In this document: positions 8,424 through 62,424 of the stretch, piece after piece
Layout: each line of letters begins with the position of its first letter
How positions within the stretch are numbered: position 1 is the stretch's first letter
Source of the DNA: Patescibacteria group bacterium
GTDB taxonomy: Bacteria; Patescibacteriota; Microgenomatia; UBA1400; UBA1449
Direction: 5' to 3'
Length of the DNA stretch: 64,000 nucleotides
Assembly (NCBI GenBank): GCA_050942955.1
Contig: JBMNOG010000006.1
Location: 932 to 64,931 of the forward strand
Position numbers and translations under genes: made by a program
Notes under the pieces: generated by a model
Told to the model about the DNA's origin: nothing
Databases searched by the model: none
The model's input: only the letters and a program-made list of their open reading frames with translations

Positions 8424-8509
8424 GGAGGAGTCGCATAGAGGTCAATTGCAGCGGTTTGCTAAACCGCGCCCCGATTTGGGGCCCGTGGGTTCAAATCCCA
8501 CCTCCTCCG
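8424..8509 (+). tRNA. tRNA-Ser(GCU).
   Basis: GGAGGAG acceptor stem pairing with CTCCTCC, anticodon stem-loop GCGGT/TTGCTAA/ACCGC (anticodon GCT), a long variable arm CCCCGATTTGGGG and a GTTCAAATC T-loop. Confidence 0.85.
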
Positions 8510-8575: not shown

Positions 8576-10180
8576 CTATTCCTGAATTAAAGAGTCAAAC
8601 CCTCTATGTGTTTCGGATTCTAAAGTAGGGTTTATGTAAAGTACTAGGTCTTCAGCAAGGTAAGTAGATCTCTTAAGAAGCGGGTTTTTTGAAGAAGAAT
8701 GGAAACGATATTCCTGTTCTTTTATCATGGTGCCCTTGACCTCTTTCAAAAAAGTTAGCTGTCCCGACTCAATTTCGTCACCCATAGTGCTGTTAATTAG
8801 GAGGTAGTCAACCGTATTAGGGTCATTTTGCAACTTACCGTCCCGTATCTCCTGGTCATACTCAGTCTTTGAATACCACTCTACATTAGGAAACAAAACT
8901 TTGTTATTTTTATCTATCCGCAAATCCAGAAAAACAAAATTATCTGCCACAATAACAGCCTGTTTATCTTGAATACTTTGCAAGCTTTCCAGTGCCTGCA
9001 ACTGGTTAGCAGTAGCATTTTCAAGGTAAAGAAACTCACCCTCTTTGAGCCAAAACATCGTTAATACTGCTAAGGGTAAAAACCAGCTCAACGGATGTTT
9101 TTTTATAAAACCATTAACTCGGGCTTCAAAAGTGAGTAAGTGTATCAGAAAACAGATTTGCAAAACTAGAAGGGGTAAAAGTGGAATAATGTAAAAATCA
9201 AGAATTGTTCCTCCTCGAATAAGAAAAAAGGTAAAAAATACACTCATAAGTGCTAACCCAATAACCACTTTATTTTTGTGCTGAAAAAGAAGGTTAAGAA
9301 CTAATGCTCCAAAACCAGCGCCAATCAACCATGGATCTATCTGCAGCCAGAAATCAAGTTTTTGACATAGGTCACTGCCTTCTTTCCAAAATAACAATCC
9401 TGAACCTCGTTTAACCTGAAAAAACAAGGTTTCGACAAAACTCACATGTTCTCCTCCGGGCAAAAACTCGCCTTTAAGAAAAGCAAGTAAAGGAAAAAGA
9501 CTTAATAAAAACCCGGTAGTAACTAAAGCTAGAAGTGTCTGGTAACGTCTGTTAACCTTACTGTTCAGGACATGCACCATATAGAGAAAAGGCGGTACTA
9601 CAAACAAAAGCGATTCCTTCGAAAGAACTGCAGCAGCCAAAAAGACACTACCCAAAAACACGTTTTTACCTTTGCTTGGCTCTCTAAGAAAAACAAAAAG
9701 ACTGACAAGCAGCCAAAAAGAAGCTAGGTTATCTAAAAGTACTTGCCTATGAAATAAAACTGCCAGTGGTGAAAACGCAAAAACCACCACTCCAAACAAA
9801 GCAATAAAAACGGACTTCGTGACATTATGGATAAGTTTGAACAGAAAAACACTGGAAAGACTGCTCACAAGGATCATAAACAGCCTCCCGGAGAACAAGG
9901 AAAAGCCAAAAGCGAAAGGCCCTCCTGTAAGCTTTTGCCACAAACCTATCTGCAACCAACCCAAAGGAAAGTGGTCATACCAATATGTGTAGGGCCCCAT
10001 TTCCTTAAAGTGAGTCCACCACCAAGCCTGGGAAACATAAATACCCTCATCTCCTAAAAACTTAGGAAACCGCCAGAAGCCGACCAGTAAAGGTATGGCT
10101 GTTAAGAGAAATACTAGTACTAAGGGTAGTAAAGAGTTTGGGTTTGCAACAGCTGGTAATTTTACCTGTTTTTGCTTCAC
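8576..10180 (-). CDS. GT-C family glycosyltransferase (GT39/ArnT/PMT-like).
   Basis: 534-aa protein with about 12 TM helices, an N-terminal periplasmic-loop acidic motif region and a C-terminal soluble domain, typical of lipid-linked sugar transferases. Confidence 0.6.
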   Translation of the reverse strand: MKQKQVKLPAVANPNSLLPLVLVFLLTAIPLLVGFWRFPKFLGDEGIYVSQAWWWTHFKEMGPYTYWYDHFPLGWLQIGLWQKLTGGPFAFGFSLFSGRLFMILVSSLSSVFLFKLIHNVTKSVFIALFGVVVFAFSPLAVLFHRQVLLDNLASFWLLVSLFVFLREPSKGKNVFLGSVFLAAAVLSKESLLFVVPPFLYMVHVLNSKVNRRYQTLLALVTTGFLLSLFPLLAFLKGEFLPGGEHVSFVETLFFQVKRGSGLLFWKEGSDLCQKLDFWLQIDPWLIGAGFGALVLNLLFQHKNKVVIGLALMSVFFTFFLIRGGTILDFYIIPLLPLLVLQICFLIHLLTFEARVNGFIKKHPLSWFLPLAVLTMFWLKEGEFLYLENATANQLQALESLQSIQDKQAVIVADNFVFLDLRIDKNNKVLFPNVEWYSKTEYDQEIRDGKLQNDPNTVDYLLINSTMGDEIESGQLTFLKEVKGTMIKEQEYRFHSSSKNPLLKRSTYLAEDLVLYINPTLESETHRGFDSLIQE

Positions 10181-10231
10181 CCTTTTAGTATACCCAAATT
10201 CTCACCTGCTATGCTATCCGGGCATGCAGAC

Positions 10232-11590
10232 TTAGTGTGAAGGAGAATACAAGAGACGGTGGCTGTTTTGGTGGACTGTCTTTTCCCAGGTATATTTACC
10301 TAGAGTAAGACGCACAAGCGCCCTTAGAGATGAAATAAAGAGCATTAGTTGGTACGGGAAAAATGTCAAAACAGTCGTTATAAAAACACCTAAAGGAAAG
10401 CGCAGGTTGTAGTACTTGCGAAGATCATACAATCCCAAGGCGTACATACCCAACTGCATTACTAAAAAGTACGCAGGCAGATATGAAAGTAACGCCAAAC
10501 CAACCGGAACCTGCAAAAATCTAGTCATAAGGGGTAGAAGCACCATAGCTACAAAACTGACATGCCTAAAAAGGGGTTGGGTTAGAATGTACAAACTCAG
10601 GTACTGCTGCTTTAGACTCTTAAACTTCAGCCACTGGCCTTTGAAAAGAATTTGTAAGTACCCGAAATCCCAACGGGAACGCTGCTTAATGAAAGCCAGT
10701 TCATCAACTGGAGTCTCTTCCAGAGTAGACAAATTTTCTTCGTATATAACACCAGTCTTAAAGTTGTGGTTAGATAGTCTGACCCCGATATCAGCATCTT
10801 CTGTTAGACACCCCTCGTCCCACTTCCCTACTGTTAGCAATGCCTCTTTTTTGATAAACACAGAGTTACCACCAAGGAAAGTAGTTTTATTTTTTGCCAT
10901 CATAGGCAGAACTGACTTGTACCAGAAGTAATACTCCAAACAGTTAATAGCTGAAAACCAGGTAGAGCCTACGTTAATAAGCTGGACCCCGGCCTGAACA
11001 ATACTAAGCTCGGTATCAGCAGCAAAAGCTTCAGATACGTGGGTTAAGATATCAGGATGAGGCTCGTCTTCAGCATCAAAGACAGCCACAATCTCGTGTT
11101 TAGCAAAGTGAGCGCCGATGTTTAAGCTGTAGGATTTAGTATTAGCTTCTCCGTCAATAGTAATGAGCCTGAAGTTATCGCGGTTTATTTGCGCTAATGC
11201 TTCTTCAGTTTTTGCAAGTGTTGCAGCATCATCTGCCCTTACTACTACCAAGACTTCATACATAGTTTTAGGGTATGAGATCCGGGACATAGCCTTAAGC
11301 GTGTCGGCAATAACTTTTTCCTCATTTCTGGCAGGAACAATCAGAGAAAACGTATAACTACCTTTTCCTGGCAAAATGTGTTTTTTGGCTTTAAGGCCTA
11401 ATAGTCTGCCGCTTTCTAAAAAGGTATATAACATTGAGTAGGTCGATAATGCTCCCTGACCGGTAAGAAGCAGTGTCAAAGCTAAAAGAATTGTGGATAT
11501 CAAAGGCAACTGAAACCAGACGGCCACGTAAAGGAAAAGGCTTAACGCCCAAAGAGGAAAGAATAGTAGTGCTAGTTTTTGTATATTCAT
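10232..11590 (-). CDS. Processive family-2 glycosyltransferase (polysaccharide synthase, cellulose/chitin-synthase-like).
   Basis: TM helices flank a GT-A domain with DXD (VFDAEDEPHPD), a TED motif (CLTEDAD) and the QxxRW processivity motif (QRSRWDFG). Confidence 0.75.
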   Translation of the reverse strand: MNIQKLALLFFPLWALSLFLYVAVWFQLPLISTILLALTLLLTGQGALSTYSMLYTFLESGRLLGLKAKKHILPGKGSYTFSLIVPARNEEKVIADTLKAMSRISYPKTMYEVLVVVRADDAATLAKTEEALAQINRDNFRLITIDGEANTKSYSLNIGAHFAKHEIVAVFDAEDEPHPDILTHVSEAFAADTELSIVQAGVQLINVGSTWFSAINCLEYYFWYKSVLPMMAKNKTTFLGGNSVFIKKEALLTVGKWDEGCLTEDADIGVRLSNHNFKTGVIYEENLSTLEETPVDELAFIKQRSRWDFGYLQILFKGQWLKFKSLKQQYLSLYILTQPLFRHVSFVAMVLLPLMTRFLQVPVGLALLSYLPAYFLVMQLGMYALGLYDLRKYYNLRFPLGVFITTVLTFFPYQLMLFISSLRALVRLTLGKYTWEKTVHQNSHRLLYSPSH

Positions 11591-11865
11591 TACATTTTGG
11601 GCAGCTATGCAAAAGCTGCCCCTATGGTATTTTTTGCTTCCCTAAATCCTCAAATTTTAAGTTTAAGAACTTAGGAAAACGTGAGAAACCGAACCAAACC
11701 AAAGACATGAACAAATCAATACCCTAAGGTATCAATAGGTTCAAGCTATAGCTTGATCACGTTTGTTTTCCCTCATCTAAAAGATGAGAAGCAGGGCCCC
11801 GTTATTGGGGAGCGCCATTCGGCGGGGCCCTGCTGTTAGACCGGGTGTTTCGCAGGTGACTTACG

Positions 11866-13020
11866 TCACTTGCGAAAAAGATGGATCAATTCCACCCGGT
11901 TGACCTCACGCTCAGTCTCGAGAACGTTCTTGACGTTGAGCCACCAGGGCGCGAACGCGAACGAGTCACGAGCCTGCGACAAGGTCATGTAGTCCGAAAC
12001 TGTGACCGTAGTGCCAGCCGGCTCACCTCTCCAGGGATCATCCCCAGGGAGGTCGTTCTCGTAGAGGACAAGGTTGTCCCCCTCAAGCTTGATCCAGGAT
12101 AGCTTCCAGAAGAAGTTACCGGGGATCTTATAGATCCTCCAGTCGGCTCCCGTCCAGACAGCGACGTATTGCACGCCATCGTTGGCGAGCTCGAACCCGG
12201 ACGGAAGGCTGTACGTGGTCTCGAACTTGGGCGAACGATCGAGCAAGAGCGCATAGGGGAACTGAAGGTTCAGTCCCTTTTTGAGCTCGTCGAGTTCGAC
12301 CGCGATCACGTACTCGATAGTGGCTGGGTAGCCGCTATCTACTTCCTTCTTGGCCTCGTCGACCTGCCTGCCTCCGAGGAGGTAGGCGACTGCGACACTC
12401 TCGGTCGTTTCGGTCTCCTCACCCACAGATGCGGGCTTGGGGGTAGACTGCGCCAGGGGATTGGCTTCGAGTGCAGTGATTCTGCGATCGAGAGAGTTAA
12501 GTCCCTCGTTCACATCCTCACGCATCCCCTGGATCGCTACAAGCACCGGATCAGGCGTAGGCGTACTCCCGTTGGTCCTAAGACCATTGGTTACAGCCTC
12601 GACCGAACCAGCCATCTGCCCCCACGGGACAATCCCGATGAGGACACAGATCAGGATGGCACCGATCACGGATAGAGAGATGGATGAAACCACTCTCCAG
12701 AACCGAGAAGGATACCATCCCCAGGGCCGCGACACAAAGAACAGAGCGATCGCACCACCGATGGCCAAGATGACTGCTAGGATGGTTAGCCATCTTGGCC
12801 ATATCACGAGCGCGGCGAGCGCGGCGAGTCCCCAAGCCAACAAACCGGCAGGGGCCAGACAGATAGTCATGAGCAGCAACCGTTTCCAGTTGCTATGGCT
12901 ACCATTCCCCAACCACGGCCATGGGTGCACACCACTGGCAAGAGTCCGCACGGCAAGATTCTGCCATGCGAATGCGGTTAGACCGAACAGTAGTACCACG
13001 GTGAACAACACGAGTTCCAT
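11866..13020 (-). CDS. Hypothetical membrane protein (4 N-terminal TM helices plus a C-terminal extracytoplasmic domain), encoded in a GC-rich island.
   Basis: 384-aa ORF. Local GC is about 58-60% against about 40% in flanking DNA. The gene has its own upstream palindrome and a GC-rich downstream hairpin. Confidence 0.6.
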   Translation of the reverse strand: MELVLFTVVLLFGLTAFAWQNLAVRTLASGVHPWPWLGNGSHSNWKRLLLMTICLAPAGLLAWGLAALAALVIWPRWLTILAVILAIGGAIALFFVSRPWGWYPSRFWRVVSSISLSVIGAILICVLIGIVPWGQMAGSVEAVTNGLRTNGSTPTPDPVLVAIQGMREDVNEGLNSLDRRITALEANPLAQSTPKPASVGEETETTESVAVAYLLGGRQVDEAKKEVDSGYPATIEYVIAVELDELKKGLNLQFPYALLLDRSPKFETTYSLPSGFELANDGVQYVAVWTGADWRIYKIPGNFFWKLSWIKLEGDNLVLYENDLPGDDPWRGEPAGTTVTVSDYMTLSQARDSFAFAPWWLNVKNVLETEREVNRVELIHLFRK

Positions 13021-15135: not shown

Positions 15136-16464
15136 CTAATGTTTTCGCCTGAGAAATAAGGCTTTGACTCCATTATAAATTGATTCTCCACTCTTTACTA
15201 ACCCGTAAGCTTCAACTATTCCAATAAGAGGAATGATCGGCAAAAAGTAGCGGTCAAACGCCACTGTTAGGTATAAGGCTAAAAACAGAACAGTCCCCGC
15301 AAACCACCAGAGAAAGTAAAGGCTTTTCTTCTCTCTTTTAAGGACTTGGATTAGCAAAAAGCTACTGCCTAAAATAAACAGTAGCACATCAATACCATCT
15401 GGTAGCCAGGGTAAAAACCTCTGGTTATGGTTAGCAGGAAGCAGAGTTTCCTCGGCTATTCCCAAAATACGGTCAAAGGGTGATGTATAGGCTAGGCTAG
15501 GTACACTTTGCTGCATATTTAAAGCAACCTGGCTACGCCAGGAAAGCATTTTGAGCGTGTTTTGGATTGGATTTTCCCAGACAAAAGGATTTAAAGCTGT
15601 AAAAACAATAAAAGCCGTAAGGTACATCACCAAAATAGGGACAAAAGCCTCCTTTACTATTTTGGAATTCCTTTTTCTTTGAAACCACGGGATAGCAAGC
15701 ATCCAGATAGAGCCTAGTATTGCTGTCATAGCAGCGTTAAGTTTAATACTGGTAGCACAACCAATCCATATGCCTAAAAATGTACTAAAACTGATAGTAA
15801 TCCAGAAATTTTTTCTAGGCTTATTTGCAAAAAAGGCAAAAAGGAGGAAGTTTATCATCATAAAAAAGATAAGCATACTGTCAGCCATAGCTTGCCTTCC
15901 CCCACTCTGAAGCAACCGGTGCTGGGCAAGCAAAAGAAAGCTGGCAAACCCTGTTACATACCCTCCTACATAGTTACCCATAAAAAAAATAGCTACTAAC
16001 AGAGCAAGGGTAAAAACTACCCCAAAGTATCGATTAATAACAATCACCTTATAAGCGTCTTGGTATTTCTCAGGAATAAATTGGTATTGAGGAGTGTGAG
16101 CCTGGTATTTTACCCACCATTGACTGGGAGAGTACTCTGAAAATAAAGAGTATGAGGCTAAATTCTCCTGAAAACCGGTTTCTGCAAAGACTTGTTGAGG
16201 ACTTTTCTGATAATAAAGAGACGTCCAGGCACCGTAAAGATATTCTCCTAGTTTTGGCTGATCATATGAGTGATAGCTTTTCCAAGCAGTATGAGAGAAA
16301 TCTTTCTCGAGGAAATACTTCTGAAAGAAGATGCCCCCTCTTTCAATCCAGGCATACTCGTCTTCATGAAGCGATTGATTAGGAAGATCTTGATAATACA
16401 CAAAAGCAACAACCGTAAAACAGAGAATAAACAGCAGGGTTTTAGCAATAGTAGGCCAACGCAT
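15136..16464 (-). CDS. Polytopic membrane protein, putative GT-C-like glycosyltransferase.
   Basis: 442-aa protein with 10 or more predicted TM helices and aromatic-rich loops, located in the glycan cluster. Confidence 0.45.
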   Translation of the reverse strand: MRWPTIAKTLLFILCFTVVAFVYYQDLPNQSLHEDEYAWIERGGIFFQKYFLEKDFSHTAWKSYHSYDQPKLGEYLYGAWTSLYYQKSPQQVFAETGFQENLASYSLFSEYSPSQWWVKYQAHTPQYQFIPEKYQDAYKVIVINRYFGVVFTLALLVAIFFMGNYVGGYVTGFASFLLLAQHRLLQSGGRQAMADSMLIFFMMINFLLFAFFANKPRKNFWITISFSTFLGIWIGCATSIKLNAAMTAILGSIWMLAIPWFQRKRNSKIVKEAFVPILVMYLTAFIVFTALNPFVWENPIQNTLKMLSWRSQVALNMQQSVPSLAYTSPFDRILGIAEETLLPANHNQRFLPWLPDGIDVLLFILGSSFLLIQVLKREKKSLYFLWWFAGTVLFLALYLTVAFDRYFLPIIPLIGIVEAYGLVKSGESIYNGVKALFLRRKH

Positions 16465-16503: not shown

Positions 16504-19500
16504 CTACAAAATTGAAACCTGCTTTCTCTTAAGAAACAACATTACCCCACCCCATCCAAAAAGCAATCCAAACCCAAAATATTCAAGCAGTTGCGGCCAG
16601 AAGAAAAAGTAAGCCTTGGTGGCACCCGTGGGTAACTTCCAGCCATTGGCCCAGTTATTGATCTTAAGATGGGTTAGTGTTCTTGGAAAAAAACTGACTT
16701 TCCCCACCCCTATCCAGCCCGGATTATATGCCTGGTAAAGGACAGCTGTAGTTTCCTTCCTGAGTGTGTTTTCCAGAGCCACTCCATAAAACCAAGGGGT
16801 ATAGTGCTTTACTGAAAAGCCAGTAACTGGTTTAGCTCGGGGTATATCGTTTTTTGTCACCAGTTTCAGGCTTTTTATGAAATTGTAAGGAAACGACCAA
16901 ATTGTCAAATTTCTAAGCCTGTTACGACTCTCTTCCCTCCCATATGAAACAGAATCAAGGTAAACAGTGTATCCTTCCCCTAGGTCGTTAGATGGAAGCA
17001 GAACAAGCCAGTTACTGGCGTAGCGTCTACTACTACCTAGAGTTGTTTCCAGCTCAGTTCTGTCTGTAATTGGGTTTTGCAAGCCGACTTTAAAGGGTAA
17101 ACCTGAAAAGTTGTTAGTTTCCAGCTTTATTAAATAACCCTGATTGTGAGGAGTGTTATCGAGATAGAAATAGTCACAGGCAGAGGCCCTGTTGCTTGCC
17201 CAGTATTCGATAACCTCTCTCCCCTGATCTACCAACAGCTTTCTCTCATATAAACCAGATGAGTTGCGGCAGTTTCTGGGGGGCTGGGTTTTGAAGCTGT
17301 CGATTTCTATAAGATTGGTACCAAACAGAGCAGAAACAACTTTGGGTAAAATAATTGAAACAGAGGTAGAACTAGAACCTCCTCGATTAGAAGACTTCGT
17401 ATACTCAAAATCTTGTCTGATTAGTTGGGGATCTACTTCTATCTTACTAACGTAGCTGCTAGGATCTTCTGAATATAATCCTATAACAGTGGTGGTGTCA
17501 CTAGGAAAAAGAGTGAATATCTCCTCATATCGGTTAATATCTACCCCTTCACCACCGTTAGTGCTCAGGTAACAGAGATTAGAACAGGTTTCTTTTGACA
17601 GAGTAATCCTTTGGGTAGGTTTGGCTTCATATATCTGGTTTCCAACTGTAACTTGGGGCAGAAGATATGTGAGAGTCAGTTCAAGCATCCGGGAAGGCAT
17701 TTTCTGCCAGGAAATTTTTACAGGTACCTGTTTTTCTAGATTAAGAATATTGGGAATATCTACCTCGTATGTTTCTGGTACGTTCTTGATGGAATTTTTG
17801 ATAGCAACAGTGTCTTTTTCCTCTGTAAGGTCGAACTCCTTATCGTTTTGGAGGTGGTTGGTAAATAAAGATGGAAAAAGGTACGTTACCTCACTGTTCT
17901 TACCTGAATCGCTGAACTGATACAGGCCATAATCTCTAAACCCCTGGTCTTCCCAGGAAAAACGGAAGTCATATGCAATATTTGGTACATCTGTATAAAG
18001 GCTAACAAAATTTTGGGTTTCAGGCTGATTTACTCTGTAAAGCCATAAAAATCCAAACTGTCTAGCTAAAACTAAGCCTGGAGCCTCTTCAAGAAACTGG
18101 CGCAACTCCTCATGGCTGCCCTCTTTTGAGGAGTAGCGGTTAGTAACAGAGGTATCAAGGAGCACCCAACCGATGTTGTACTTGGCAAAAATTGCCCCCA
18201 GGGCTTCATGGGAGCCATCGTTAAGTGCAGTTTTCAGTTCCCAGTAGTATTGCTCATTTTCCCTGCTCCAAGGGTCAAAAGTCCTATCTAAGATGGGTTG
18301 CTCAATGCCATACCATAAAAACCCAGACCCCCTGTACCCTCCCCCATAAGACTTAGGCCAGTTATGCCACTGCCACCCCCAGAAAGACGTCTGGGGAAAG
18401 TTGGCAATTCGGGTTTGCTTATCCTGGGTTTTTAGGTAAGCAAACAAGTCAAAGTATTCCTGGGGTACGTGCTGTTTTACTCTTGTATAAATCAGTTGCC
18501 CTTCAAATATGGGTAAAGCTAGAAGCACCAGTCCTCCAATAGCAGCTGCCAGCAGTCCCCAAGCTAGTAGAAGACTTTTTCCTTTGAGGTAAAACCATTC
18601 CATCACCCAGAACACACCAAAACCTACAAAAATTGAGTAGCTGAAACTGGCAGGAACCACCCACTTTGTAAATAGCGACCTGAATATCTGTGAAAAAAGC
18701 GGGATAACCTGAAGAAGTCTAACAATAAACCCTGTAGGCGGGTTTTCTCCTATAAGCATTACAAAGGAAACTATGAGAATGCTTAACAGACTCCATCTCC
18801 AGAGTAAATTGCTTCTAAAACTGTAGATAACTCCCAGAATTACGAAAGTAAAGAAAAGATAACCAAAAGCTAAAGGAATGGGGTTTTGTAAGTGCTGTCT
18901 CCAGGGTTGAACTAGATACACTAACTGGTCTTCTTCATTAAAGTCGGGGTAATCAAACCAGAAACCTCTCAAAAGCGCTACATCCACAAATCTTCCAAAG
19001 GCATTGTTCCGCAGCCTTGTTTCTTCTGTTGAGAGCTGGTTTATCTTAGCTTGCTTAGTAACTGAAGCACTTGTAAACGTAAAAAACACTACCGGAAAGA
19101 GCCAGAAAGCATTAACCGCTAGAAGTGTTACTAGTGCATCAAAAACGATTTTGAGGTGCGTTTGAACTGCCGACTTGTGGCTGCTGATATTTTTCAAGAG
19201 GTAATCGACCAGAAAAACAGTTACTACTACTGCATACACGATAAAAACAGTCTGAACGTAAAAAGAAGGGGTCATGAGAAAGCCAACTAGCCCAAACAAG
19301 GTCAGGTTCTTCAGTTTCCTCCTCTCAAGGTAACGCCTAAGGGAATATATTCCCCAAGGCAAAAATCCAAAGAACGTAGAAAATGGCTCAAAAGGGACGT
19401 AAAAGTTCTGAACTGTCCCCAAGTTAAGAAAGTAGAACAGCGCCCCTACCAAGCCCGCCCACTTTCCAAAAAACTTGTTTTTAAGAAAAGAAGATAGCAG

Positions 19501-19833
19501 GAAAAATATTCCCAGAGAACCAAGAAGGAGCATTCCCAGATGCCAAGCGTAACGCAGAACCGAAACTGGAAACAGTAGGCTCATACCCCAAAGAATAAGC
19601 TGGCGGACAAGGTCAGCCGCGTGCCCCATACCGCCTAAAAGCCCCACACCCTGATACTCCTGCCAGACAGCATGTAAAGAGCGGCTCAGGTTAAGAGGAA
19701 AATTAAACTCAGGATGGAGATTGTCCCAACCAGTAAGGAAAGTTCCCGGAGTGTAATTTGCAACTACAACTATAAACCACACCAGTAAAAGCAGTATCAG
19801 CGGGACATGACTTTTAATTTTAGAGAAAAACAT
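16504..19833 (-). CDS. Large (1109 aa) integral membrane protein with an extracytoplasmic C-terminal half; putative GT-C arabinosyl/mannosyl-transferase-like envelope glycosyltransferase.
   Basis: About 15 N-terminal TM helices followed by a roughly 600-aa soluble region. It lies between the GH5 and GT2 genes. Confidence 0.45.
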   Translation of the reverse strand: MFFSKIKSHVPLILLLLVWFIVVVANYTPGTFLTGWDNLHPEFNFPLNLSRSLHAVWQEYQGVGLLGGMGHAADLVRQLILWGMSLLFPVSVLRYAWHLGMLLLGSLGIFFLLSSFLKNKFFGKWAGLVGALFYFLNLGTVQNFYVPFEPFSTFFGFLPWGIYSLRRYLERRKLKNLTLFGLVGFLMTPSFYVQTVFIVYAVVVTVFLVDYLLKNISSHKSAVQTHLKIVFDALVTLLAVNAFWLFPVVFFTFTSASVTKQAKINQLSTEETRLRNNAFGRFVDVALLRGFWFDYPDFNEEDQLVYLVQPWRQHLQNPIPLAFGYLFFTFVILGVIYSFRSNLLWRWSLLSILIVSFVMLIGENPPTGFIVRLLQVIPLFSQIFRSLFTKWVVPASFSYSIFVGFGVFWVMEWFYLKGKSLLLAWGLLAAAIGGLVLLALPIFEGQLIYTRVKQHVPQEYFDLFAYLKTQDKQTRIANFPQTSFWGWQWHNWPKSYGGGYRGSGFLWYGIEQPILDRTFDPWSRENEQYYWELKTALNDGSHEALGAIFAKYNIGWVLLDTSVTNRYSSKEGSHEELRQFLEEAPGLVLARQFGFLWLYRVNQPETQNFVSLYTDVPNIAYDFRFSWEDQGFRDYGLYQFSDSGKNSEVTYLFPSLFTNHLQNDKEFDLTEEKDTVAIKNSIKNVPETYEVDIPNILNLEKQVPVKISWQKMPSRMLELTLTYLLPQVTVGNQIYEAKPTQRITLSKETCSNLCYLSTNGGEGVDINRYEEIFTLFPSDTTTVIGLYSEDPSSYVSKIEVDPQLIRQDFEYTKSSNRGGSSSTSVSIILPKVVSALFGTNLIEIDSFKTQPPRNCRNSSGLYERKLLVDQGREVIEYWASNRASACDYFYLDNTPHNQGYLIKLETNNFSGLPFKVGLQNPITDRTELETTLGSSRRYASNWLVLLPSNDLGEGYTVYLDSVSYGREESRNRLRNLTIWSFPYNFIKSLKLVTKNDIPRAKPVTGFSVKHYTPWFYGVALENTLRKETTAVLYQAYNPGWIGVGKVSFFPRTLTHLKINNWANGWKLPTGATKAYFFFWPQLLEYFGFGLLFGWGGVMLFLKRKQVSIL

Positions 19834-19846
19834 GTTAAAGCCTAGT

Positions 19847-20713
19847 TTAGGTAAATGTCTGTTTTCCCTTATTTTGTGAAGGTTCTTTCTCCAACTGCCT
19901 TAACCGGTTGTATAAGGGAAATATGAGTTTTTTGGGAAGCAAACTCACTATAAGCATTTGTAGAAGAGTTATACTAATGTCTGCCAAATGCGGACGGTAG
20001 CCGTAACTCATAATCGCTTTCACTCTAGATCTAAGCGTAACAAAAAATGTCTTCTTAGGATCTTTTAAAGAAGTGTTATCGGGGTGGATGCGATAAGACA
20101 GAAGGTAGTCTTTGAGGTTGGCACAACTGCCAAACTGAAATAACCTAAACAGCAGGTCTACCTCCTCTGCAGTCTCTTCCCCTTCCTTGTACCACCTGTA
20201 GTTTTGGGGTAAGAGTTTGCGGTTTACCATAAGTGAGGGCTGCTGCAAAGGAATGGATCTAAAGATCATCCGGTAAATGCTTCTATGGTCTTGAGGGAAC
20301 GTTTTAATACCCAGAATTTTTCCCTTAGTGTCAATGAGCTGGCACTGGGCTCCAACAGCCACTGTTTGCCCATGATGCTGCAAAAATGCCACCTGTTTTG
20401 CTAGCCTCTCAGGATGCATGACATCATCTGCATCCATTCTGGCAACATAATCTCCGCGGATTTTTGATAAAGCTAGGTTGGCAGCACTAGCCACACCCCA
20501 GTGTTTACCGTTGCGGTATGCAGTAATCCGACTGTCTGTACTTTCGTACTTTTTGAGAATTTCCCAGGAATGGTCTTCTGACCAATCATCAACAGCAATT
20601 AGTTCCCAGTTGGGATACGTCTGGTTTTGAATACTTGAAAGCGCCTGAGACAAAAACTTCTCGCCATTAAAAACAGGCATAAAGATGGAAACTGTGGGCC
20701 TTGGTTTACTCAT
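19847..20713 (-). CDS. Family-2 glycosyltransferase (polyprenyl-phosphate sugar synthase-like).
   Basis: N-terminal GT-A fold motifs VSIFMPVFNGEKFL ... AVDDWSEDHS ... MDADD (DXD). Confidence 0.75.
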   Translation of the reverse strand: MSKPRPTVSIFMPVFNGEKFLSQALSSIQNQTYPNWELIAVDDWSEDHSWEILKKYESTDSRITAYRNGKHWGVASAANLALSKIRGDYVARMDADDVMHPERLAKQVAFLQHHGQTVAVGAQCQLIDTKGKILGIKTFPQDHRSIYRMIFRSIPLQQPSLMVNRKLLPQNYRWYKEGEETAEEVDLLFRLFQFGSCANLKDYLLSYRIHPDNTSLKDPKKTFFVTLRSRVKAIMSYGYRPHLADISITLLQMLIVSLLPKKLIFPLYNRLRQLEKEPSQNKGKQTFT

Positions 20714-20888
20714 TGTTGTTTCTCTCCTTTGAGGCTACGAATGTTTCCTAACCTCAAGAGAAAGGGCGGCGCTGTAGAGCTTGGCAAGAAAATGGTTCCT
20801 CCTGGTGGAGAAAACATCTTATGCTCAAGATACAGTGCCGCCGGCAAGGTAGTAGCTGTGCTGCTTTCTCTTCCTTTCCAGGACGGAC

Positions 20889-21650
20889 TCATGGGGTATA
20901 ACGGGTATAGTCAACCGCTCCACAACGCCAGCCTGAAAGAGGGTTGACCACCTCAAGCAGCCACCCCTGTTCAATTGCCTGACCGACCCGGAAGCAGAAC
21001 TCCTGCTCTCCCCACTCCGAGGTTGTTACCAAGGCAAAACCGTCGGTAACGTTAAGGACAACCGGAGTGCCATCACTCCGCCAGGCTCTGTAGTGGCCTT
21101 CGATGCCGTTGACAACAACTCCGCCAGCGATGATAACGCTTCCAGTGGGAGCTTCAATCGTCCACACCTGATGTCCACCAACTCCAGTTGGTAAGTACAG
21201 TGAGGGGTGAGTAATATCCGGTTGGGGGTTAAGTCCAGTCGCAACAGTCCCGTTGATCACAATGAGAGGTGGTTGACCTACCGTACCCCTTCGTCCCGGC
21301 ACAACAGCCATTTCGGATGCGGCCGCTGGTACAACACCTTGTGGTTCCAGAACAGCTACCCCTTCTCTGATGGTTGCAGCCATGATTCTCTGGAGCTCTT
21401 CTTGAGTGAGAACACCCTCTTGGATCTCCTGCCTAATTTCCTGCCTAAACTGCTCGAACTCCCCCTGAGTGACCTGTCCTTCACGGACTGCTACAAGAAC
21501 CCGCTCCTCAAATTCTTCAAGGTCTGCGGCTGTAACTACGTCCACGTCACCCAGATCAGGCTCGATGTCCCCGCCAGTGTAGGCGTCACAGGCCATTAAG
21601 GCCACGATAAACACCACTACCAGAACAGATGTTGCTATTACTCGTCTCAT
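20889..21650 (-). CDS. Putative lipoprotein of unknown function (GC-rich island gene 1).
   Basis: Signal peptide ending in the lipobox-like LMAC, an E/Q-rich helical segment and a Gly/Val-rich beta domain. Local GC is about 52-55%. Confidence 0.5.
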   Translation of the reverse strand: MRRVIATSVLVVVFIVALMACDAYTGGDIEPDLGDVDVVTAADLEEFEERVLVAVREGQVTQGEFEQFRQEIRQEIQEGVLTQEELQRIMAATIREGVAVLEPQGVVPAAASEMAVVPGRRGTVGQPPLIVINGTVATGLNPQPDITHPSLYLPTGVGGHQVWTIEAPTGSVIIAGGVVVNGIEGHYRAWRSDGTPVVLNVTDGFALVTTSEWGEQEFCFRVGQAIEQGWLLEVVNPLSGWRCGAVDYTRYTP

Positions 21651-21666
21651 CTGAAACCTCCTTCTC

Positions 21667-23163
21667 TTAGGGGTTTGTCCGCCTGACTCTCCGCCAGTTG
21701 TTTCCGACCAATCCCATAGCCACTACCAGAGTAATAAATGCCAGGATGTAGAGTATGGGTATCAGCCAACCCATAAAAACGCTGCGATAAGCCCCACCTT
21801 GGTCAAGAATAAACCTAGCCCAGGTTAGAGTACCACCCAGTGCTAGCAGAAAGAGCAAGCCTCCTACCCCACCTAGAATGAGAGCTGTAGTGTTAGTCTC
21901 CCTAAAGGTAGAAATCGCTACAACTTGGGATGTAGGAGGTGCAGGAACAACCGGTACTGGCCGTTCGCTCTGGACCGCCGCTCGGTGTACCTCCAAAAGA
22001 AGATCGTGGTACTGTTGAGAGTCATAGGTCTCAACAGGTTCACCTTCGAGTATATCAGCCCTCTGTCTGAACTCGGCTCGGCGGTCTTCGGGTACTAGGT
22101 CAATCTGTGTCCTTATTACCCGAAGATAGTGTTCTTTCTGATCCTGAAGAACACTGCGTCTGGCATCACGGCGGTGTTCTTCGATCTGGCTCTCGGCTAT
22201 CCTATCTTCCAGATCATTTACCATCTCTTGGATCAACTTAGCCGCATCCTCTACCGGATACATATCCCAGGTTTTCCATTCAAGGTCATCAACCTGCTTC
22301 CGGTACTTCCCAGCTTTGTCAGGGGAAAGATTTTTGTAGACAGTGAGGACAATCTCCTGAAGAGTATCTCGGGTTTCCTGCTTGTAGGTCGATTCCCTCT
22401 TGTCTGCCCTCTGTTGAATAGTCTGGGCAGTATCCTCGTTTATATCTTCGAGAAGTTGGAGTGTCGCTTGGACATCAAAGTCGATGGCAGATTGAGAACG
22501 CTGTTCCTCAATTCTGTGCCGGAACTCTTCACGGTGATCTGGATGGACTTTGTCCAGCTTGTTCTCTGCCTTGGAAAGAAGCCCGTCTTTCACCCTGGCC
22601 TTACTCAGCACCTCCTCTTCTGTGAGAACCACCACTTTGTCAGCCACTTCCTCTCTCCTCTTCTCTGCTTCACTGGGTTCAGGGATTTCGTCACTTACTT
22701 TTGGGTGAGAAGGTGTAATTGGTGGAGCTTCTAGAATCGGTTCTCTAAGCCCAACCTCCGCCTTTATCCTATCTAGTTCTTCTTCAAGTTTGGTGTCTCT
22801 CCGGTTCAACTCCTCACGCACACTAGTCAGGATCCTCTGCTCAGAGCTTTTCAGTAGTTCTGCCAATAATCCCTCTGTTTCCTGAGCTGCTTCTTCAGCT
22901 ATTTCAGGGATAGATTCCACACTCTCATCAACTTCCGGTTCCGTGGTAACCACTTGTGGTGAGGGTGAAACGGAACTTCTTTGAGCCTCCCATTCCCCTG
23001 TTTTTTGAAGAAGTTCATCTTCAAAGGCTTGACCGCTTAGACCAGTCCGGTTCTTGATCCTCTGCTCAAGAACTTCGATACCCCCTGTCCTCCATTCCTC
23101 TCTCAATTCTCTCGCCCAGTAGCGAAGCACGTAGTAGCGTTCCCGACCCGTTAGTCGCTCCAT
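21667..23163 (-). CDS. Coiled-coil protein with two C-terminal TM helices, unknown function (GC-rich island gene 2).
   Basis: 498-aa protein, highly charged with E/R/K-rich heptad-like segments. The C-terminal ALILGGVGGLLFLLALGG ... LIPILYILAFITLVVAMGLV forms a TM hairpin. Confidence 0.5.
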   Translation of the reverse strand: MERLTGRERYYVLRYWARELREEWRTGGIEVLEQRIKNRTGLSGQAFEDELLQKTGEWEAQRSSVSPSPQVVTTEPEVDESVESIPEIAEEAAQETEGLLAELLKSSEQRILTSVREELNRRDTKLEEELDRIKAEVGLREPILEAPPITPSHPKVSDEIPEPSEAEKRREEVADKVVVLTEEEVLSKARVKDGLLSKAENKLDKVHPDHREEFRHRIEEQRSQSAIDFDVQATLQLLEDINEDTAQTIQQRADKRESTYKQETRDTLQEIVLTVYKNLSPDKAGKYRKQVDDLEWKTWDMYPVEDAAKLIQEMVNDLEDRIAESQIEEHRRDARRSVLQDQKEHYLRVIRTQIDLVPEDRRAEFRQRADILEGEPVETYDSQQYHDLLLEVHRAAVQSERPVPVVPAPPTSQVVAISTFRETNTTALILGGVGGLLFLLALGGTLTWARFILDQGGAYRSVFMGWLIPILYILAFITLVVAMGLVGNNWRRVRRTNP

Positions 23164-23396
23164 CTTCTCCCTCCAGTTACAAAGTTTAGAGACAACTCAT
23201 CTACAACCAGACTTACTCGCCTACCCATTTAAAGAGTCAGAGAGAAAGCTGGTTTACAGCTTACTACCTTGTTAAAGTGCTTCTTGCAAAAAGTTAGGTA
23301 AACGCATATGTTCGCCGCTTTGTGCAAGACTCGTTCTGCCAAGTAGGCAGAGAAGAAACCCGATATCTCTTCCCTGCCTGCTTTAGAAATGAGGGC

Positions 23397-23428
23397 AAAA
23401 AAACCCGCTTTTGTGCGGGTTTTAGGGT
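23397..23428. terminator. Rho-independent terminator after the LPXTG gene.
   Basis: AAAAAAACCCGCTTTTGTGCGGGTTTTAGGGTTT: a GC stem flanked by an A-run and a T-run. Confidence 0.65.
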
Positions 23429-23460
23429 TTAAAACATAGTCTTTATTAATTTCTCAATAC

Positions 23461-48577: not shown

Positions 48578-49099
48578 AGATAAGTTCCTATCATCTAAAC
48601 CCTAGATTGCCAGTTTTACCTAAAAGATACTTCTGGCTCAGCTGCCAGCTGATCCCATTTTAGCGGGACAAGGCTAACGGCCCAGAGTCTGTCCTCTTTG
48701 TATATCCACGTATATTAAAAGTGCTCTTGTGGCCCTAACTCTTTCTGAGACATGGCCAAAACTAAAAAAGTCTCCGTTAGGAGACTTGTAAAACCATGCA
48801 CTAAGCCAAAATCACCACCGCCAGCGACAAAATTGTTCAAATTTTGAATGAGACGATGTTGTTGTGATTAATGTTTTAGGCATGCAGAGTAAATCTCCTA
48901 ACATCTATACCGTATTCTATCAGACAAGTTGCCACCAAGTCAACGGATATTATTGATCAATTTAAAGATCTGTCAGATCTTAAATGGCTTATTCAGCTTC
49001 ATCCATTCATCAACTAAAAGATCAGGTGAGCTTGCCCATCGAAGGATCGGGCATGGAACACGGCTGAATAAGCTAACGTGGAGTAGCCTGATCCATAGG

Positions 49100-49173
49100 T
49101 GGGTGATCTTGGAGTCGAACCAAGGACCTCAGTCTTATCAGGACTGCGCTCTAACCAACTGAGCTAATCACCC
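49100..49173 (-). tRNA. tRNA-Ile(GAU) in the rRNA spacer.
   Basis: Reverse complement GGGTGATTAGCTCAGTTGGTTAGAGCGCAGTCCTGATAAGACTGAGGTCCTTGGTTCGACTCCAAGATCACCCA. The anticodon loop is CTGATAA (GAT). Confidence 0.9.
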
Positions 49174-49467: not shown

Positions 49468-50085
49468 ATGGCTTTTACCCTTCCTCCACTTCCCTATGAT
49501 TACAATGCGCTTGAGCCTTCAATTGATGAAGAAACAATGCATTTTCATCATGATAAACATCACCAAGGGTATTTAAATAAGTTTAATGATGCCTTAAAGA
49601 AATATCCGGAGTGGCAAGAAAAATCTCTTGAAGAGATTATGGCTAACTTGGAAAAGCTGCCAGAAGAAGTAAAGACAACTGTCCGAAACAATGGTGGCGG
49701 CTACTACAACCATAATCTGTTTTGGGAAGTGATGAAGCCCGACGGCAGTGAGCCATCAAAAGAGATGCTCGCTATTTTAGAAAGCCGTTTTGGCGGCTTA
49801 AAAGAGTTTCAGGATGAGTTCAGTGCTATTGCCGCCAATCACTTTGCCAGCGGCTGGGCGTGGCTGGCTATGAAACCTAACGGCACCCTTACCCTCTATT
49901 CTACTGCCGGACACGATAACCCTCTCATGGTGGGTGAAAAACCTTTGTTAGTTTTAGATGTCTGGGAACATGCCTACTACCTTAAGTATAAAAATGACAG
50001 GGCTGAGTTTATTCGTAATTGGTGGAAGGTGGTTAACTGGGGGAAAGTTGAAGAGAATTATAATAAAGCAAAGGAGACCTTGTGA
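49468..50085 (+). CDS. sodA: Fe/Mn-type superoxide dismutase.
   Basis: Metal ligands and motifs FHHDKHHQGY and DVWEHAYY. 205 aa. SD-like GGAGATACC lies upstream. The gene sits inside the 16S-23S spacer on the strand opposite the rRNA genes. Confidence 0.9.
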   Translation: MAFTLPPLPYDYNALEPSIDEETMHFHHDKHHQGYLNKFNDALKKYPEWQEKSLEEIMANLEKLPEEVKTTVRNNGGGYYNHNLFWEVMKPDGSEPSKEMLAILESRFGGLKEFQDEFSAIAANHFASGWAWLAMKPNGTLTLYSTAGHDNPLMVGEKPLLVLDVWEHAYYLKYKNDRAEFIRNWWKVVNWGKVEENYNKAKETL

Positions 50086-50310: not shown

Positions 50311-51828
<1,518 letters not shown>

Positions 51829-52032
51829 AAAAAAGTTCCCGCAATAGGCGGGACTATTTCTGAGTAAAGGAATTAACAGGTAAATTCAGATCCGCCAACT
51901 GGCAGATCGAATGATTTCTTCCACATCTTGCACTCCCGTTAGGGTCGTCTAAGCTTGCTAGCTTGAAAGTGAAGACAGGTTTAAAGTACAGATGTGATCG
52001 TAGTATTAACTTGTTAATGTACTCAAACAGTC

Positions 52033-59294: not shown

Positions 59295-62200
59295 ATGGTA
59301 ATTATTATACCATCGCAGACAAATGCATGTTTCCCTCTAAGAAAATAAGGAAAGCATAAAGTTCACAATTACAGAAAGTACACCATCTATAAAACAAGAA
59401 ATGTGTTTTTATAGCATAGTTAAATGTTCAAAAGTAAAATACATGGCTCAAAAAGCATGAGAAAACAAGTAATGGGGAAAATACATATGGAAAATCTCAG
59501 TTACAGAACTAACTTCTGTTCTGTTTAAAGCAAATATATTGATTTAACAGTTAATTAAATAATGTATAAACAATTATTGTTTTATAAATCAATAAAATTT
59601 AATTTCTAAAATTTTGAAATCTTCATTTAAGCTTAATATTTTGAGTCACCATCAAATAAAAAATATTTAATTAAACGTGCCAAAATCTCGAAAACTGGTG
59701 TAACAAGAAAAATGGCCCAAAAAAACCATTAAAAATAAATAAATAAAGCAATGTAATAGAAAATGTAATACCTTCACCAGCAGCAATTTGTATTTAATAT
59801 AAGCACCACCACTTCAAAGCATAAGTAAATAGCTAAGAGGTATAATTTAGTATCAAGCAAAAACGGTAAAAAGGTATTGTCACTAGCAACTAAATGAAAA
59901 AATACATTTGTCAGCACACATTTGTAAGTTTTCCACATATAGCCACTGTTTGCTAGACTACTAGTACTATGTGTCTATGTTTGCTAGCTATTCGTTATAC
60001 TGTTTGATAGCACAAAATAAAAACATAAATAATTTTCACTACTTAAAAAATATACATTGACATTTTTCATCACAGAGTGCTTAAACACACACCATCACTA
60101 TAACATATTTAGTGGTGTCAATAATTACTAGATACAAATAATAACATCACTACTAATATAGTGATACTTTTTGCTGACATAAATTTGGAAGATTAAAATA
60201 ATATGTAATTATTTCGGTTATGCTTTTGTATTGCGACTCCAGCTCTGTTCGCTGTAACTTATGTCACCTGCCTTATGTTTTAATTGTAGTTGGATAAGAA
60301 AACAGTTAAGTATATTTCGGAAAATATTTTACTCATTTGATGGCGTAAACTAAATTTATATGCCATCACAATAATTACTACTTCAGCAAATATTATAGGA
60401 AGATCGAACAAATACCACCACTTTCAGTTTAGCGCAATATCTATCTCTAATTAACATTAAACTTACTTCTAAAAATGGCATCAGCACTGATTTTAACAGA
60501 GGTAGATTAATTCTAAGCCTGTTCTAGCTATTCTTGTAAAACTCACCTAGATTCCAGTCATCAGGGCTATTAGAAAAATACTGGTTTTTTATCAAGTTAA
60601 ACATTTTTTTAGTGTTTTGTAAGTTTTACTGCCACTGTCTGGCACAACAATAAGAGTAAATTCCTACCAAAACAGAATGCGGAAATTTTATTCTTTGTAA
60701 GGTTCTCATTTATATCTGAAAAGGAAAAAGTAATCTTACTCGTCTTTGCAAATTAATATACTCTATGTACTCAATTTATGCTGTAAAATAAGCTTATATT
60801 TAATGATTGAATGTCTAGCACTTACTTCCTGAGATTGACAGATTTAAGACGTGTTGAAGGAAAGTTCTTTGTTTACATATCCTAGTTTATATCCGCAAGC
60901 AGAAAATTTAGAATTACAGAGGAACACATTGTACTAAACACCGTCATTTTACCGATTTTTAAACACTTACACAAATTTACCTCTAGAACTTTGATCTTCC
61001 GATTGTCTAATTTAAGTTCCCCAGTTTAATAGGGGAACTTAAATTTAAGTAGAGATTGGTTGATAGGTAATATATATCAAAACAATATCTTCTATATCAA
61101 TTAGAATAAACTCTTTGTTTATGCCTTCTCATCCTTCATTTATACCAAAATCGACAGTTTCTAATAGATATATGTTTTTGTTTTGTTCGTACTATAGATT
61201 AACCGAAGTTTACGTTCTTATTATATAACCTATCTATTTAAGCATGTTCTCCTCTTCCTGAATAAAATAGCACTTTCCTTTAGTTAATGCTAGCTAATTT
61301 TTGAGCCCTTTTTTCTTGAAACAATAGTAATTACACAAACTGTAAATATTTTTTCATTTAAGCCATTCTTAAAAATTCCCAACCACTCTCTTATTGAATG
61401 TTTCACTTTTTTGTTTAAGTATCTTATTATTGGTGCACTGTCCTACTAGCACCTTATGTTTAAGCCATATTGGTAGTTATTATCTTAAAATTGTAAAGCT
61501 TGAATTATCTTAGTAGTTATCGTAATAACTTCGGTTGTACTTCTATTCTCCAAGTTAATGCTTATTCGTCATAGGTCAAGTTATAGGGATTTATTTATTT
61601 TAAAAAACTATACTTTCGTTCTTATTAATATATCTTATTATATCTAATTAAGTCAGTGCATTTAATTTACATAGATAGATGTGATCCTACTCTGTTGCGT
61701 ACAACCGTTTAAATTCTTTTGTTGGAATTCTTATATTTTTTCTTATATAAACTGTCGCATGATACTGTTAGAATTGGTTTGCTTCCCCACCAATCAGCTC
61801 ATCTTCTCTTTATTGATTAGAAGTTTACTTTTTTAACTGAGGTAAATCTTATAAAAGACATTCTAAACATAAACAATAAAGTAAAAGAGGTGAATCAAAG
61901 TAGTTTATTACATAGTATTTCAAAGACGAGACTTGGGGTTTCCAATTTTACTCTTTTTTCTAAAACTATAAGACATAAAACAAATATCATTTCAACACGT
62001 TATCCACAATTTAATACTCATTATTATAAGATAGTAACAATAGATATAAATTATTCCTTTATAATCAATAAAAATATGCTAATAACCATAATTTTATTAC
62101 AACTTAGGAAAAAATGAAATTGTTCACAATTTGTTGCCGTGCCTCTCTTCTCAAACCTAAGCCATCCAGATATTAAATATATGCAACCTTAGGTTTTTAT

Positions 62201-62424
62201 ATCTTTTTATATCATTGAATTGTTCCAGCTACTGATCACCTATCAAGATAATCAATTTATCTAGTATAAATTATAGGATTTAATTGACACTAATTTTTCA
62301 GGTCAAAGCTGCTAGTTTTATACATGCTCCCCTTTTTCCTATTTGACAGCGTGTGAAAATCTTTTTTATTATAGTAATAGGAAGAAATAAAAGTTATGCA
62401 AACTTATGCACTAACAGGCTAAAG

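Follow-up and report, generated by a model that had tools for sequence, protein, structure and literature searches.

A GC-rich two-gene operon without known family in an envelope gene cluster of a Patescibacteria genome

A 64,000-nucleotide stretch of contig JBMNOG010000006.1 from a Patescibacteria group bacterium (assembly GCA_050942955.1), referred to here as the window, carries two adjacent genes, termed A and B, that are richer in guanine + cytosine (GC) than the genes around them. A and B are real genes, as seen from ribosome-binding sites, a lipobox, internal repeats and conservation that persists across codon divergence, and they form a lineage-restricted, co-inherited operon that falls in no known family. 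The setting is envelope-related, the neighbours being GT2, PMT-type GT-C, GH5, GH3, sortase, LPXTG and pilin genes. The reading we favour, to which we give a probability of about 0.4, is that A-B is a two-gene envelope operon in a recurrent slot of a hypervariable Patescibacteria envelope-glycan cassette, and that GC-richness is a property of this class of genes. The two products are listed at NCBI as hypothetical proteins (ACOX6V_02705 and ACOX6V_02710) of a metagenome-assembled genome named 'Patescibacteria group bacterium', on a 65.8-kb contig. A literature search found no description of this type of locus.

The A-B operon

All window genes under discussion are on the minus strand. The features of the operon and its borders are as follows.

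20714-20888, minus: GC-rich spacer between B and the GT2 gene, 49.7% GC, with a weak hairpin at 20796-20813
20889-21650, minus: gene B, 253-amino-acid lipoprotein (open reading frame, ribosome-binding site, lipobox)
21667-23163, minus: gene A, 498 amino acids (open reading frame, ribosome-binding site); NCBI tag ACOX6V_02710, hypothetical protein
21697-21894, minus: C-terminal membrane hairpin of A, residues 424-489 (hydropathy)
21934-22611, minus: three helical repeats of A, ~75 amino acids each (shuffle tests and AlphaFold helix pattern)
23164-23396, minus: leader/promoter region of gene A, 233 nt (direct reading of the sequence)
23397-23420, minus: intrinsic terminator of the upstream LPXTG/DUF11 gene, ACCCGC-ACAAAA-GCGGGT followed by a T-run

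Both open reading frames, and the 16-nt gap between A and B, were confirmed as given in a preliminary description of this DNA. Ribosome-binding sites of the GGAGG type precede both genes: GGAGGGAG at 23167-23174 for A, and AAGGAGG, 7 nt 5′ of the start codon, for B. A-B represents its own transcription unit, since the terminator upstream closes the LPXTG gene and the gap is only 16 nt; the tight two-gene unit proposed earlier is thereby borne out. Rfam gives weak leader-type matches on the terminator hairpin, and a pattern scan did not list it, probably since flanking A/T pairs lengthen the stem. A pattern scan of the leader region found no sigma-70-like promoter there, and the region holds no open reading frame. 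The spacer 23164-23460 as a whole is 41% GC.

Relatives of the pair

Neither A nor B has a family in Pfam, NCBIfam, PHROGs or PADLOC (Pfam and PADLOC were searched to E ≤ 0.1), and the same is true of a 384-amino-acid protein encoded by a second GC-rich gene of the window. A match of B to DUF1737 is 22.2 bits, under the 24-bit cut-off, covers 18 residues and is noise. A PDB sequence search gave no match for A at E ≤ 1 and none for B, and Foldseek against PDB with the A model, whose predicted local distance difference test score (pLDDT) is 63.7, gave nothing at E ≤ 0.001. The B model was left out of the structure search because its pLDDT of 42.8 was too poor. The earlier impression that neither protein resembles a known family is upheld by these searches. 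No relatives of A or B were found among viral contigs, phage genomes and plasmids.

In a word-indexed search of 5.8 billion protein clusters, A (among the best 8000 candidates) and B retrieved only themselves, and an alignment query added nothing. An exhaustive HMMER scan of 1.84 billion cluster representatives was made with A as the query, B having been searched by word index. The scan yielded one true relative of A, P0003, a 209-amino-acid fragment that is 48% identical to A residues 316-486 (E = 2e-34) and is located on two metagenome contigs of ~1 kb, L150 and L151. On L150, a lipoprotein MKKVGLVLLLAVLMLVGC... starts 27 nt downstream of P0003, behind an AAGGAG site. It displays the lipobox LLLAVLMLVGC and a Pro/Thr/Gln-rich linker, and then a 36-residue stretch with 78% identity to residues 130-165 of B. 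As P0003 precedes a B-like lipoprotein, the pair travels together in a second organism, a co-occurrence that the preliminary description had put forward as a check. B may have more relatives, because the word-indexed search missed the L150 B-like fragment. A further hit to A, P0004 (E = 2.9e-7), has 30% identity summed over five repeated stretches and is judged to be a chance similarity inflated by the repeats. P0004 consists of tandem repeats that are MLLE-like by eye only, no family search having been run on it; A, which is without any Pfam match, does not belong to the MLLE/PABC family (Pfam PABP).

Between A and L150, 87 of 192 aligned residues are identical, 47 of these with different codons; between B and L150 the counts are 28 of 36 and 15. 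Because many identical residues use different codons, selection acts on the A and B proteins. This conservation of amino acids despite synonymous changes refutes the view that A and B are spurious open reading frames over a structured RNA, to which we attach a negligible probability. It is true that a GC-rich patch of an AT-rich genome often turns out to be an RNA gene, and that the window's other GC-rich region is the rRNA operon. Rfam, however, is empty inside the island apart from the terminator hairpin, the distribution of GC over codon positions in A and B is that of typical coding sequence, and the two genes have ribosome-binding sites and encode a signal peptide and membrane segments.

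Base composition

The GC content is 54.2% for B and 49.6% for A, as against 43.1% for the GT2 gene, 42.0% for the LPXTG gene and 41.9% for coding sequence overall. A range of 52-55% for both genes and ~40% for their neighbours had been given before; B fits this range, A lies below it and the neighbours are at 42-43%. GC at third codon positions (GC3) is 0.50 in B and 0.47 in A, compared with a background of 0.37 ± 0.04, and the synonymous-usage z-scores are -3.6 for B and -3.8 for A. GC3 residuals are +3.1 standard deviations (sd) for B and +2.4 sd for A. These residuals stand because background genes show no coupling between GC3 and GC at the first two codon positions (GC12; r = -0.01). In GC3 and codon usage, the compositional check suggested at the outset, both genes are thus distinguishable from the background.

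Part of the excess is a consequence of what the proteins are made of. When the expected GC is computed from amino-acid composition with the window's own (background) codon usage, B is predicted at 49.8% and A at 46.1% (background 0.419). Amino-acid composition then accounts for 64% of the GC excess in B and 55% in A, and synonymous choice for 36-45% across the two genes. It is conceivable, if improbable, that there is no island at all and that A and B are native genes whose GC excess simply follows from proteins of unusual amino-acid make-up (Glu, Asp, Val, Ala, Gly, Arg). The predicted values fit this interpretation, as do the GC of first codon positions (0.68 in B and 0.635 in A, with other genes at ~0.52) and the GC of fourfold sites, which is 0.42 vs 0.34 ± 0.05 and so merely about +1.6 sd. 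The synonymous 36-45% and the GC3 residuals in the face of absent GC12-GC3 coupling are at odds with it, and so is the spacer 20714-20888, which has the highest GC of 18 intergenic regions of the window (range 0.18-0.44, mostly ~0.35). Composition is therefore atypical at synonymous and non-coding sites, as in a genomic island, though 55-64% of the excess is amino-acid-driven.

The compositional anomaly of A-B is real but moderate, and falls well short of that of the 384-amino-acid gene at 11866-13020, which has 57.5% GC, a GC3 of 0.69, a usage z-score of -12.8 and a GC3 residual of +7.8 sd. The 384-amino-acid protein has some four membrane segments in its N-terminal part and, besides these, a Pro/Thr linker, a short coiled region and a C-terminal domain. 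A GT2 gene comes after each of the two protein-coding GC islands in the window: B is followed by GT2_288, and the 384-amino-acid gene by GT2_452.

A recurrent GC-rich slot in related cassettes

The genes that surround A-B in the window are listed below, in window order.

GH3 gene, minus: member of the envelope cluster, first in window order (Pfam)
8576-10180, minus: PMT_2-type GT-C gene (PF02366/PF13231 match)
10232-11590, minus: GT2_452 glycosyltransferase gene, directly downstream of the 384-amino-acid GC island gene
11866-13020, minus: 384-amino-acid protein gene, sister GC-rich unit (composition and GT2 adjacency)
GH5 gene, minus: between the 384-amino-acid gene and the PMT-type GT-C gene (Pfam)
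15136-16464, minus: PMT-type GT-C gene (PF02366/PF13231 match)
16504-19833, minus: gene for a 1109-amino-acid polytopic membrane protein without family match, the anchor for finding related cassettes
19847-20713, minus: GT2_288 glycosyltransferase gene (PF00535, E = 5e-34), immediately downstream of B, in the position that is the conserved partner of the GC-rich slot
DUF11/LPXTG gene, then sortase, RadA and pilins, minus: past gene A (Pfam)

A metagenome scan with the 1109-amino-acid protein gave 65 loci (25-52% identity in the best segment, 27-36% over the full length). The slot statistics that follow come from about 40 loci, all ascertained via this one anchor gene. In about 23 of the 65 loci the order of LPXTG gene, GT2 gene and 1109-amino-acid homologue is kept, and repeatedly one GC-rich open reading frame lies between these genes, at 48-63% GC vs 30-44% for the locus, with GC3 raised in nearly all. 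Of 18 non-redundant loci with 5 kb or more of upstream sequence, 12 have a GC island within ~5 kb upstream of the 1109-amino-acid homologue. In control Patescibacteria loci (116 kb), GC islands hold no long open reading frame and look like rRNA. Of 27 GC-rich unlabelled open reading frames, 13 have a GT2 gene as the first or second gene that follows on their strand, vs 4 of 255 others.

A lipobox or signal anchor is found in most slot proteins; a Pro/Thr/Ala-rich linker is usual in them, and their C-terminal domain contains Cys. None of the slot open reading frames of relatives has a Pfam family; weak interrelation (E about 1e-4) was detected among the slot proteins of three loci (L091, L101, L125). 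The GC excess of the slot genes divides much as it does in A and B, with 42-70% from amino acids and 30-58% synonymous in 12 of 13 tested; in the slot gene of L101 it is wholly amino-acid-driven. The GC-rich genes for anchored proteins that distant relatives have at this place differ from A-B, which argues for GC-richness as a recurrent property and against a one-off insertion.

Comparison of pairs of related loci indicates, at the sequence level, that the envelope cassette is hypervariable and is replaced as a block. In L143 and L086 the flanks are 81-96% identical, the GT2 proteins are 26% identical and the slot proteins are unrelated. In L140 and L137 the flanking genes are 48-80% identical, and the slot genes are orthologous, 53% identical and 55-58% GC in both. 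The 1109-amino-acid proteins are 38-48% identical across the two pairs (38% for L143 vs L086). As both L140/L137 orthologues are GC-rich, GC-richness can persist through deep divergence, unlike that of an acquired gene that drifts to host composition.

Two features of the relatives are of separate interest. A small membrane protein of 87-100 amino acids, single-pass and with a C-terminal C-x3-KGY motif, is encoded between the GC-rich gene and the GT2 gene in several relatives and has no counterpart in the window.

L085, 2412-2675: C-x3-KGY small membrane protein
L101, 7809-8111: C-x3-KGY small membrane protein
L094, 4423-4704: C-x3-KGY small membrane protein

The largest slot island, at L090 5450-9100, is 3.6 kb long and reaches 64% GC. 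On the cluster strand it displays two small charged helical open reading frames and two signal-peptide proteins (438 and 131 amino acids); long antisense open reading frames in the same island are probably artefacts of high GC.

Several points weigh against the reading of A-B as the occupant of such a slot. None of the slot proteins or open reading frames of the fetched loci is homologous to A or B by tblastn, phmmer or hhalign, so that 'same slot' is a positional argument only, and a feature-based search found no A-like protein in the related loci. The nearest relatives are very distant (1109-amino-acid protein ≤ 36% identical, RadA ≤ 72%). The GC excess of A is slightly below the threshold used for calling GC-rich open reading frames, and the cause of the synonymous GC shift in A-B and in the slot genes is unexplained. 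B is without the Pro/Thr-rich stretch typical of O-glycosylated linkers, and the structure models of both A and B are of low confidence (pLDDT 63.7 and 42.8).

Acquisition and strain variation

The preliminary description proposed an acquired module of foreign composition. Recent acquisition of A-B from a donor of higher GC, with drift to host composition not yet complete, remains the chief competitor of the slot reading, although we consider it unlikely. It would account for the synonymous z-scores and GC3 residuals, for the GC-rich spacer 20714-20888, for the near-orphan status of A and B, and for their place in a cassette subject to exchange among close relatives. The usual marks of insertion are lacking, however. 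Pfam-annotated neighbours are envelope genes and include no integrase, transposase or other mobility gene; the nearest tRNA genes are at 8424 and 48504; and flanking direct or inverted repeats are short ones at chance level, so that neither an attachment site nor repeats of the kind that border genomic islands are seen. No donor was found among billions of proteins and the phage, plasmid and viral collections. Amino-acid composition explains 55-64% of the excess, the L150 pair, which contains the sole homologue, has the same composition (about 52% GC, GC3 0.43-0.45), GC-rich genes recur at the slot, and the L140/L137 orthologues stay GC-rich.

The island is also unchanged in two further assemblies of the species, one 100% identical and one identical across the island. 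The latter, a contig from ERR10905741, listed as anaerobic-digester sludge (PMC10541625), is 98.8% identical to the window over 17 kb and shows zero differences across 11.6-26.4 kb, A-B included. In the same strain a patch at 9850-11600, which comprises the 3′ end of the PMT_2 gene and GT2_452, is ~11% divergent, the next 15 kb being nearly identical; GT2_452 alone accounts for 149 differences, with 28 amino acids changed. The patch has the look of a glycosyltransferase allele exchanged by recombination within the species. With no integrase, nearby tRNA, repeat or donor, and with over half of the GC excess amino-acid-driven, the proposal of an acquired foreign module was not sustained.

The A and B proteins

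That both products are associated with the envelope, as proposed at first, agrees with the lipobox of B and the C-terminal hydrophobic segments of A. The B protein begins MRRVIATSVLVVVFIVALMAC and has a signal peptide at residues 1-21 with the lipobox VVVFIVALMAC and Cys21. The lipoprotein rule of PROSITE PS51257 type calls for Lys/Arg early, an uncharged hydrophobic stretch, the pattern [LIVMFWSTAG]2-[LIVMFYSTAGCQ]-[AGS]-C and a Cys at ~15-35. B fits this rule when it is written as a regular expression, and its earlier prediction as a lipoprotein with the lipobox LMAC is supported. The NCBI call for B, 235 amino acids from Met19, would delete the signal peptide. The long start (253 amino acids) is favoured because of the ribosome-binding site and the canonical LVGC lipobox of the L150 B-like gene. 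The B model, of low confidence and built without alignments as was that of A, displays three short Glu/Gln-rich helices at residues 41-95 and, after a linker, a C-terminal domain (~125-253) rich in beta structure. B contains 7.5% Thr and 2.8% Ser.

A is acidic, with 95 Asp + Glu vs 69 Lys + Arg; 33% of its residues are charged. By hydropathy, residues 424-449 and 461-489 are hydrophobic segments and the N-terminus is free of them, and no signal peptide is predicted, in keeping with the initial picture of a charged protein that ends in a transmembrane hairpin. The model is all-helical, with a pLDDT of about 90 for residues 340-400. Three repeats lie in register at residues 185-258, 259-336 and 337-410, each with the motif L-x-P-[DE]-x4-[FY]-R. 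Repeats 1 and 3 are similar at z = 5.6, a value reached in 0 of 500 shuffles, and repeats 2 and 3 at z = 3.5, reached in 2 of 500; by the same test, the similarity of repeats 1 and 2 is not significant. Repeat 3 is the block most conserved in P0003. The hairpin has an outside loop of ~16 amino acids and is followed by a basic tail, NNWRRVRRTNP; its W-A and RS..GWL.P positions are conserved in P0003. By the positive-inside rule, the N-terminal ~410 amino acids and the tail would be cytoplasmic and only the ~16-amino-acid loop would be outside. Given the low pLDDT of both models, no fold-based function was obtained.

Possible function of the slot

According to the slot reading, B would be exported and lipid-anchored at Cys21, and would present its conserved, beta-rich C-terminal domain at the end of a spacer that varies: it is predicted to be helical in B, whereas that of the single relative known is Pro/Thr/Gln-rich. 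The bulk of A, with its acidic composition and three helical repeats, would be cytoplasmic and tethered by the C-terminal two-helix hairpin, whose short outside loop is conserved. A and B, which are co-inherited, would be co-transcribed, and may form a trans-membrane complex with contact via the hairpin loop of A. The cassette has the order sortase, LPXTG protein, slot, GT2, GT-C-type membrane proteins, and relatives fill the slot, just 5′ of the GT2 gene, with unrelated GC-rich, membrane-anchored exoproteins that belong to no family. The GC enrichment would then represent the amino-acid bias and synonymous shift of a gene class and not the mark of a single foreign insertion. We infer that B is most likely a surface-exposed determinant that works with, or is modified by, the adjacent glycosyltransferases, and A a cytoplasmic tether or organiser. 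By analogy with the Ppm/Pmt glycosylation of actinobacterial lipoproteins, the slot proteins in general may cooperate with or be modified by the glycosyltransferases next to them. An adhesion role, one of those suggested earlier, or a role in surface display is possible for this predicted envelope pair.

A broader and more doubtful hypothesis is that the envelope-glycan cassettes of Patescibacteria share a conserved unit in which a GC-rich, fast-evolving anchored exoprotein gene sits directly 5′ of a GT2 gene. The exoproteins would be dedicated acceptors or specificity partners of the glycosylation enzymes of the cassette and act as determinants of the cell surface or of host contact, and A-B would be such a unit that gained a tail-anchored cytoplasmic partner. 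The GC content would be actively maintained rather than inherited from a donor: selection on mRNA or expression, or biased gene conversion in a hot spot of recombination, would keep it high.

Patescibacteria are thought to be attached to other cells, and their surface proteins are almost wholly uncharacterised. If the pattern proves true genome-wide, a GC-rich gene for an N-terminally anchored protein with a GT2 neighbour would flag candidate surface determinants, and perhaps glycoprotein acceptors, in thousands of uncultured genomes. A-B represents a concrete, testable two-protein candidate for a membrane-spanning complex. The question is also raised of how a small gene stays GC-rich in an AT-rich reduced genome across deep divergence.

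Comparison with known systems

In the actinobacterial Ppm/Pmt system, a GT2 polyprenol-phosphate-sugar synthase and a GT-C protein mannosyltransferase O-mannosylate secreted lipoproteins (PMC3460810, PMC5673659, PMC6593405). Here too the lipoprotein gene B adjoins GT2 and PMT-family GT-C genes (15136-16464 and 8576-10180), the two kinds of enzyme being encoded together (PF00535; PF02366/PF13231). Pro/Thr/Ala-rich linkers, typical of O-glycosylated regions, are present in many slot proteins and in the L150 B-like protein. Unlike the Ppm/Pmt acceptors, B has a helical, Glu/Gln-rich spacer without a Pro/Thr linker, and its glycosylation is a candidate only. The cassette also differs in that it has the 1109-amino-acid membrane protein, which is without family, and in that the window GT2 is GT2 by Pfam family only. 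Acceptor genes in Actinobacteria are not known to lie beside the enzyme genes but are scattered.

O-antigen, capsule and S-layer glycan loci are a second point of reference. As in these, the cassette differs sharply between conserved flanks (L143 vs L086), an 11% divergent patch (9850-11600) lies in an otherwise identical strain, and composition is atypical. Such loci as a whole usually have GC below that of the genome, whereas in the cassette the departure is confined to the small anchored-protein gene and goes towards high GC, the GC of the glycosyltransferase genes being normal or low.

An envelope-stress module of PspA/IM30 type, an anti-phage module or a spanin-like prophage-lysis module, the first two of which had been suggested before, is very unlikely. 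The resemblance is a general one, that of a long helical membrane protein next to a lipoprotein. A has no match to PspA_IM30 or any other Pfam family to E = 0.1, PHROG matches are at noise level, and phage or viral relatives are absent from the collections searched; A, B and the 384-amino-acid protein fall in no PADLOC anti-phage system or defence family (E ≤ 0.1), nor in a phage family. The phage spanins Rz/Rz1 likewise have the gene of a long helical membrane protein beside a lipoprotein gene. A, however, is hydrophobic only at 424-489; it has a C-terminal hairpin and helices predicted to be cytoplasmic in place of an N-terminal anchor and periplasmic coiled coil, which is the opposite of an i-spanin, and is about three times longer. 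The neighbours include no holin, endolysin or other phage genes, and A-B is not a spanin pair. An outer membrane is generally regarded as absent from Patescibacteria.

EzrA and PspA/IM30 resemble A in that a large acidic cytoplasmic domain of repeated helical units is held at the membrane. A matches neither of them in sequence, and its anchor is a C-terminal hairpin, unlike the N-terminal helix of EzrA and the peripheral binding of PspA. Membership of A in the PspA/IM30/Vipp1 family (PF04012, ESCRT-III-like fold) is rejected, as there is no Pfam, PDB or Foldseek-PDB match (model pLDDT 63.7).

Other observations

A gene for an Fe/Mn superoxide dismutase (PF00081, PF02777) is located at 49468-50085, plus strand, within the rRNA operon. 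Its neighbours there are the 16S gene (50317-51831) on one side and tRNA-Ile (49098-49173) on the other, and it is read from the strand opposite to theirs. A region of ~3.1 kb at 59300-62400 has 28-31% GC, no open reading frame of at least 100 amino acids and no tandem or direct repeats. It is followed by an open reading frame, from ~62420 to beyond the window end, that by eye displays a MerR/excisionase-like helix-turn-helix and then a Pro/Thr linker.

A RadA search of genome contigs gave no usefully close genome. The closest RadA (72% identity) is on L001, CAYXFC010000149.1, a 2.8-kb contig of a metagenome-assembled genome labelled 'uncultured Pseudomonadales', and L001 is probably a mis-binned Patescibacteria contig. 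In one of the control loci, L061 (WS6/Dojkabacteria), an open reading frame at 1405-1917 is by eye LAGLIDADG-type homing endonuclease-like and adjoins a GC-rich stretch free of open reading frames. This arrangement is consistent with an rRNA intron, which would explain the GC island in that locus.

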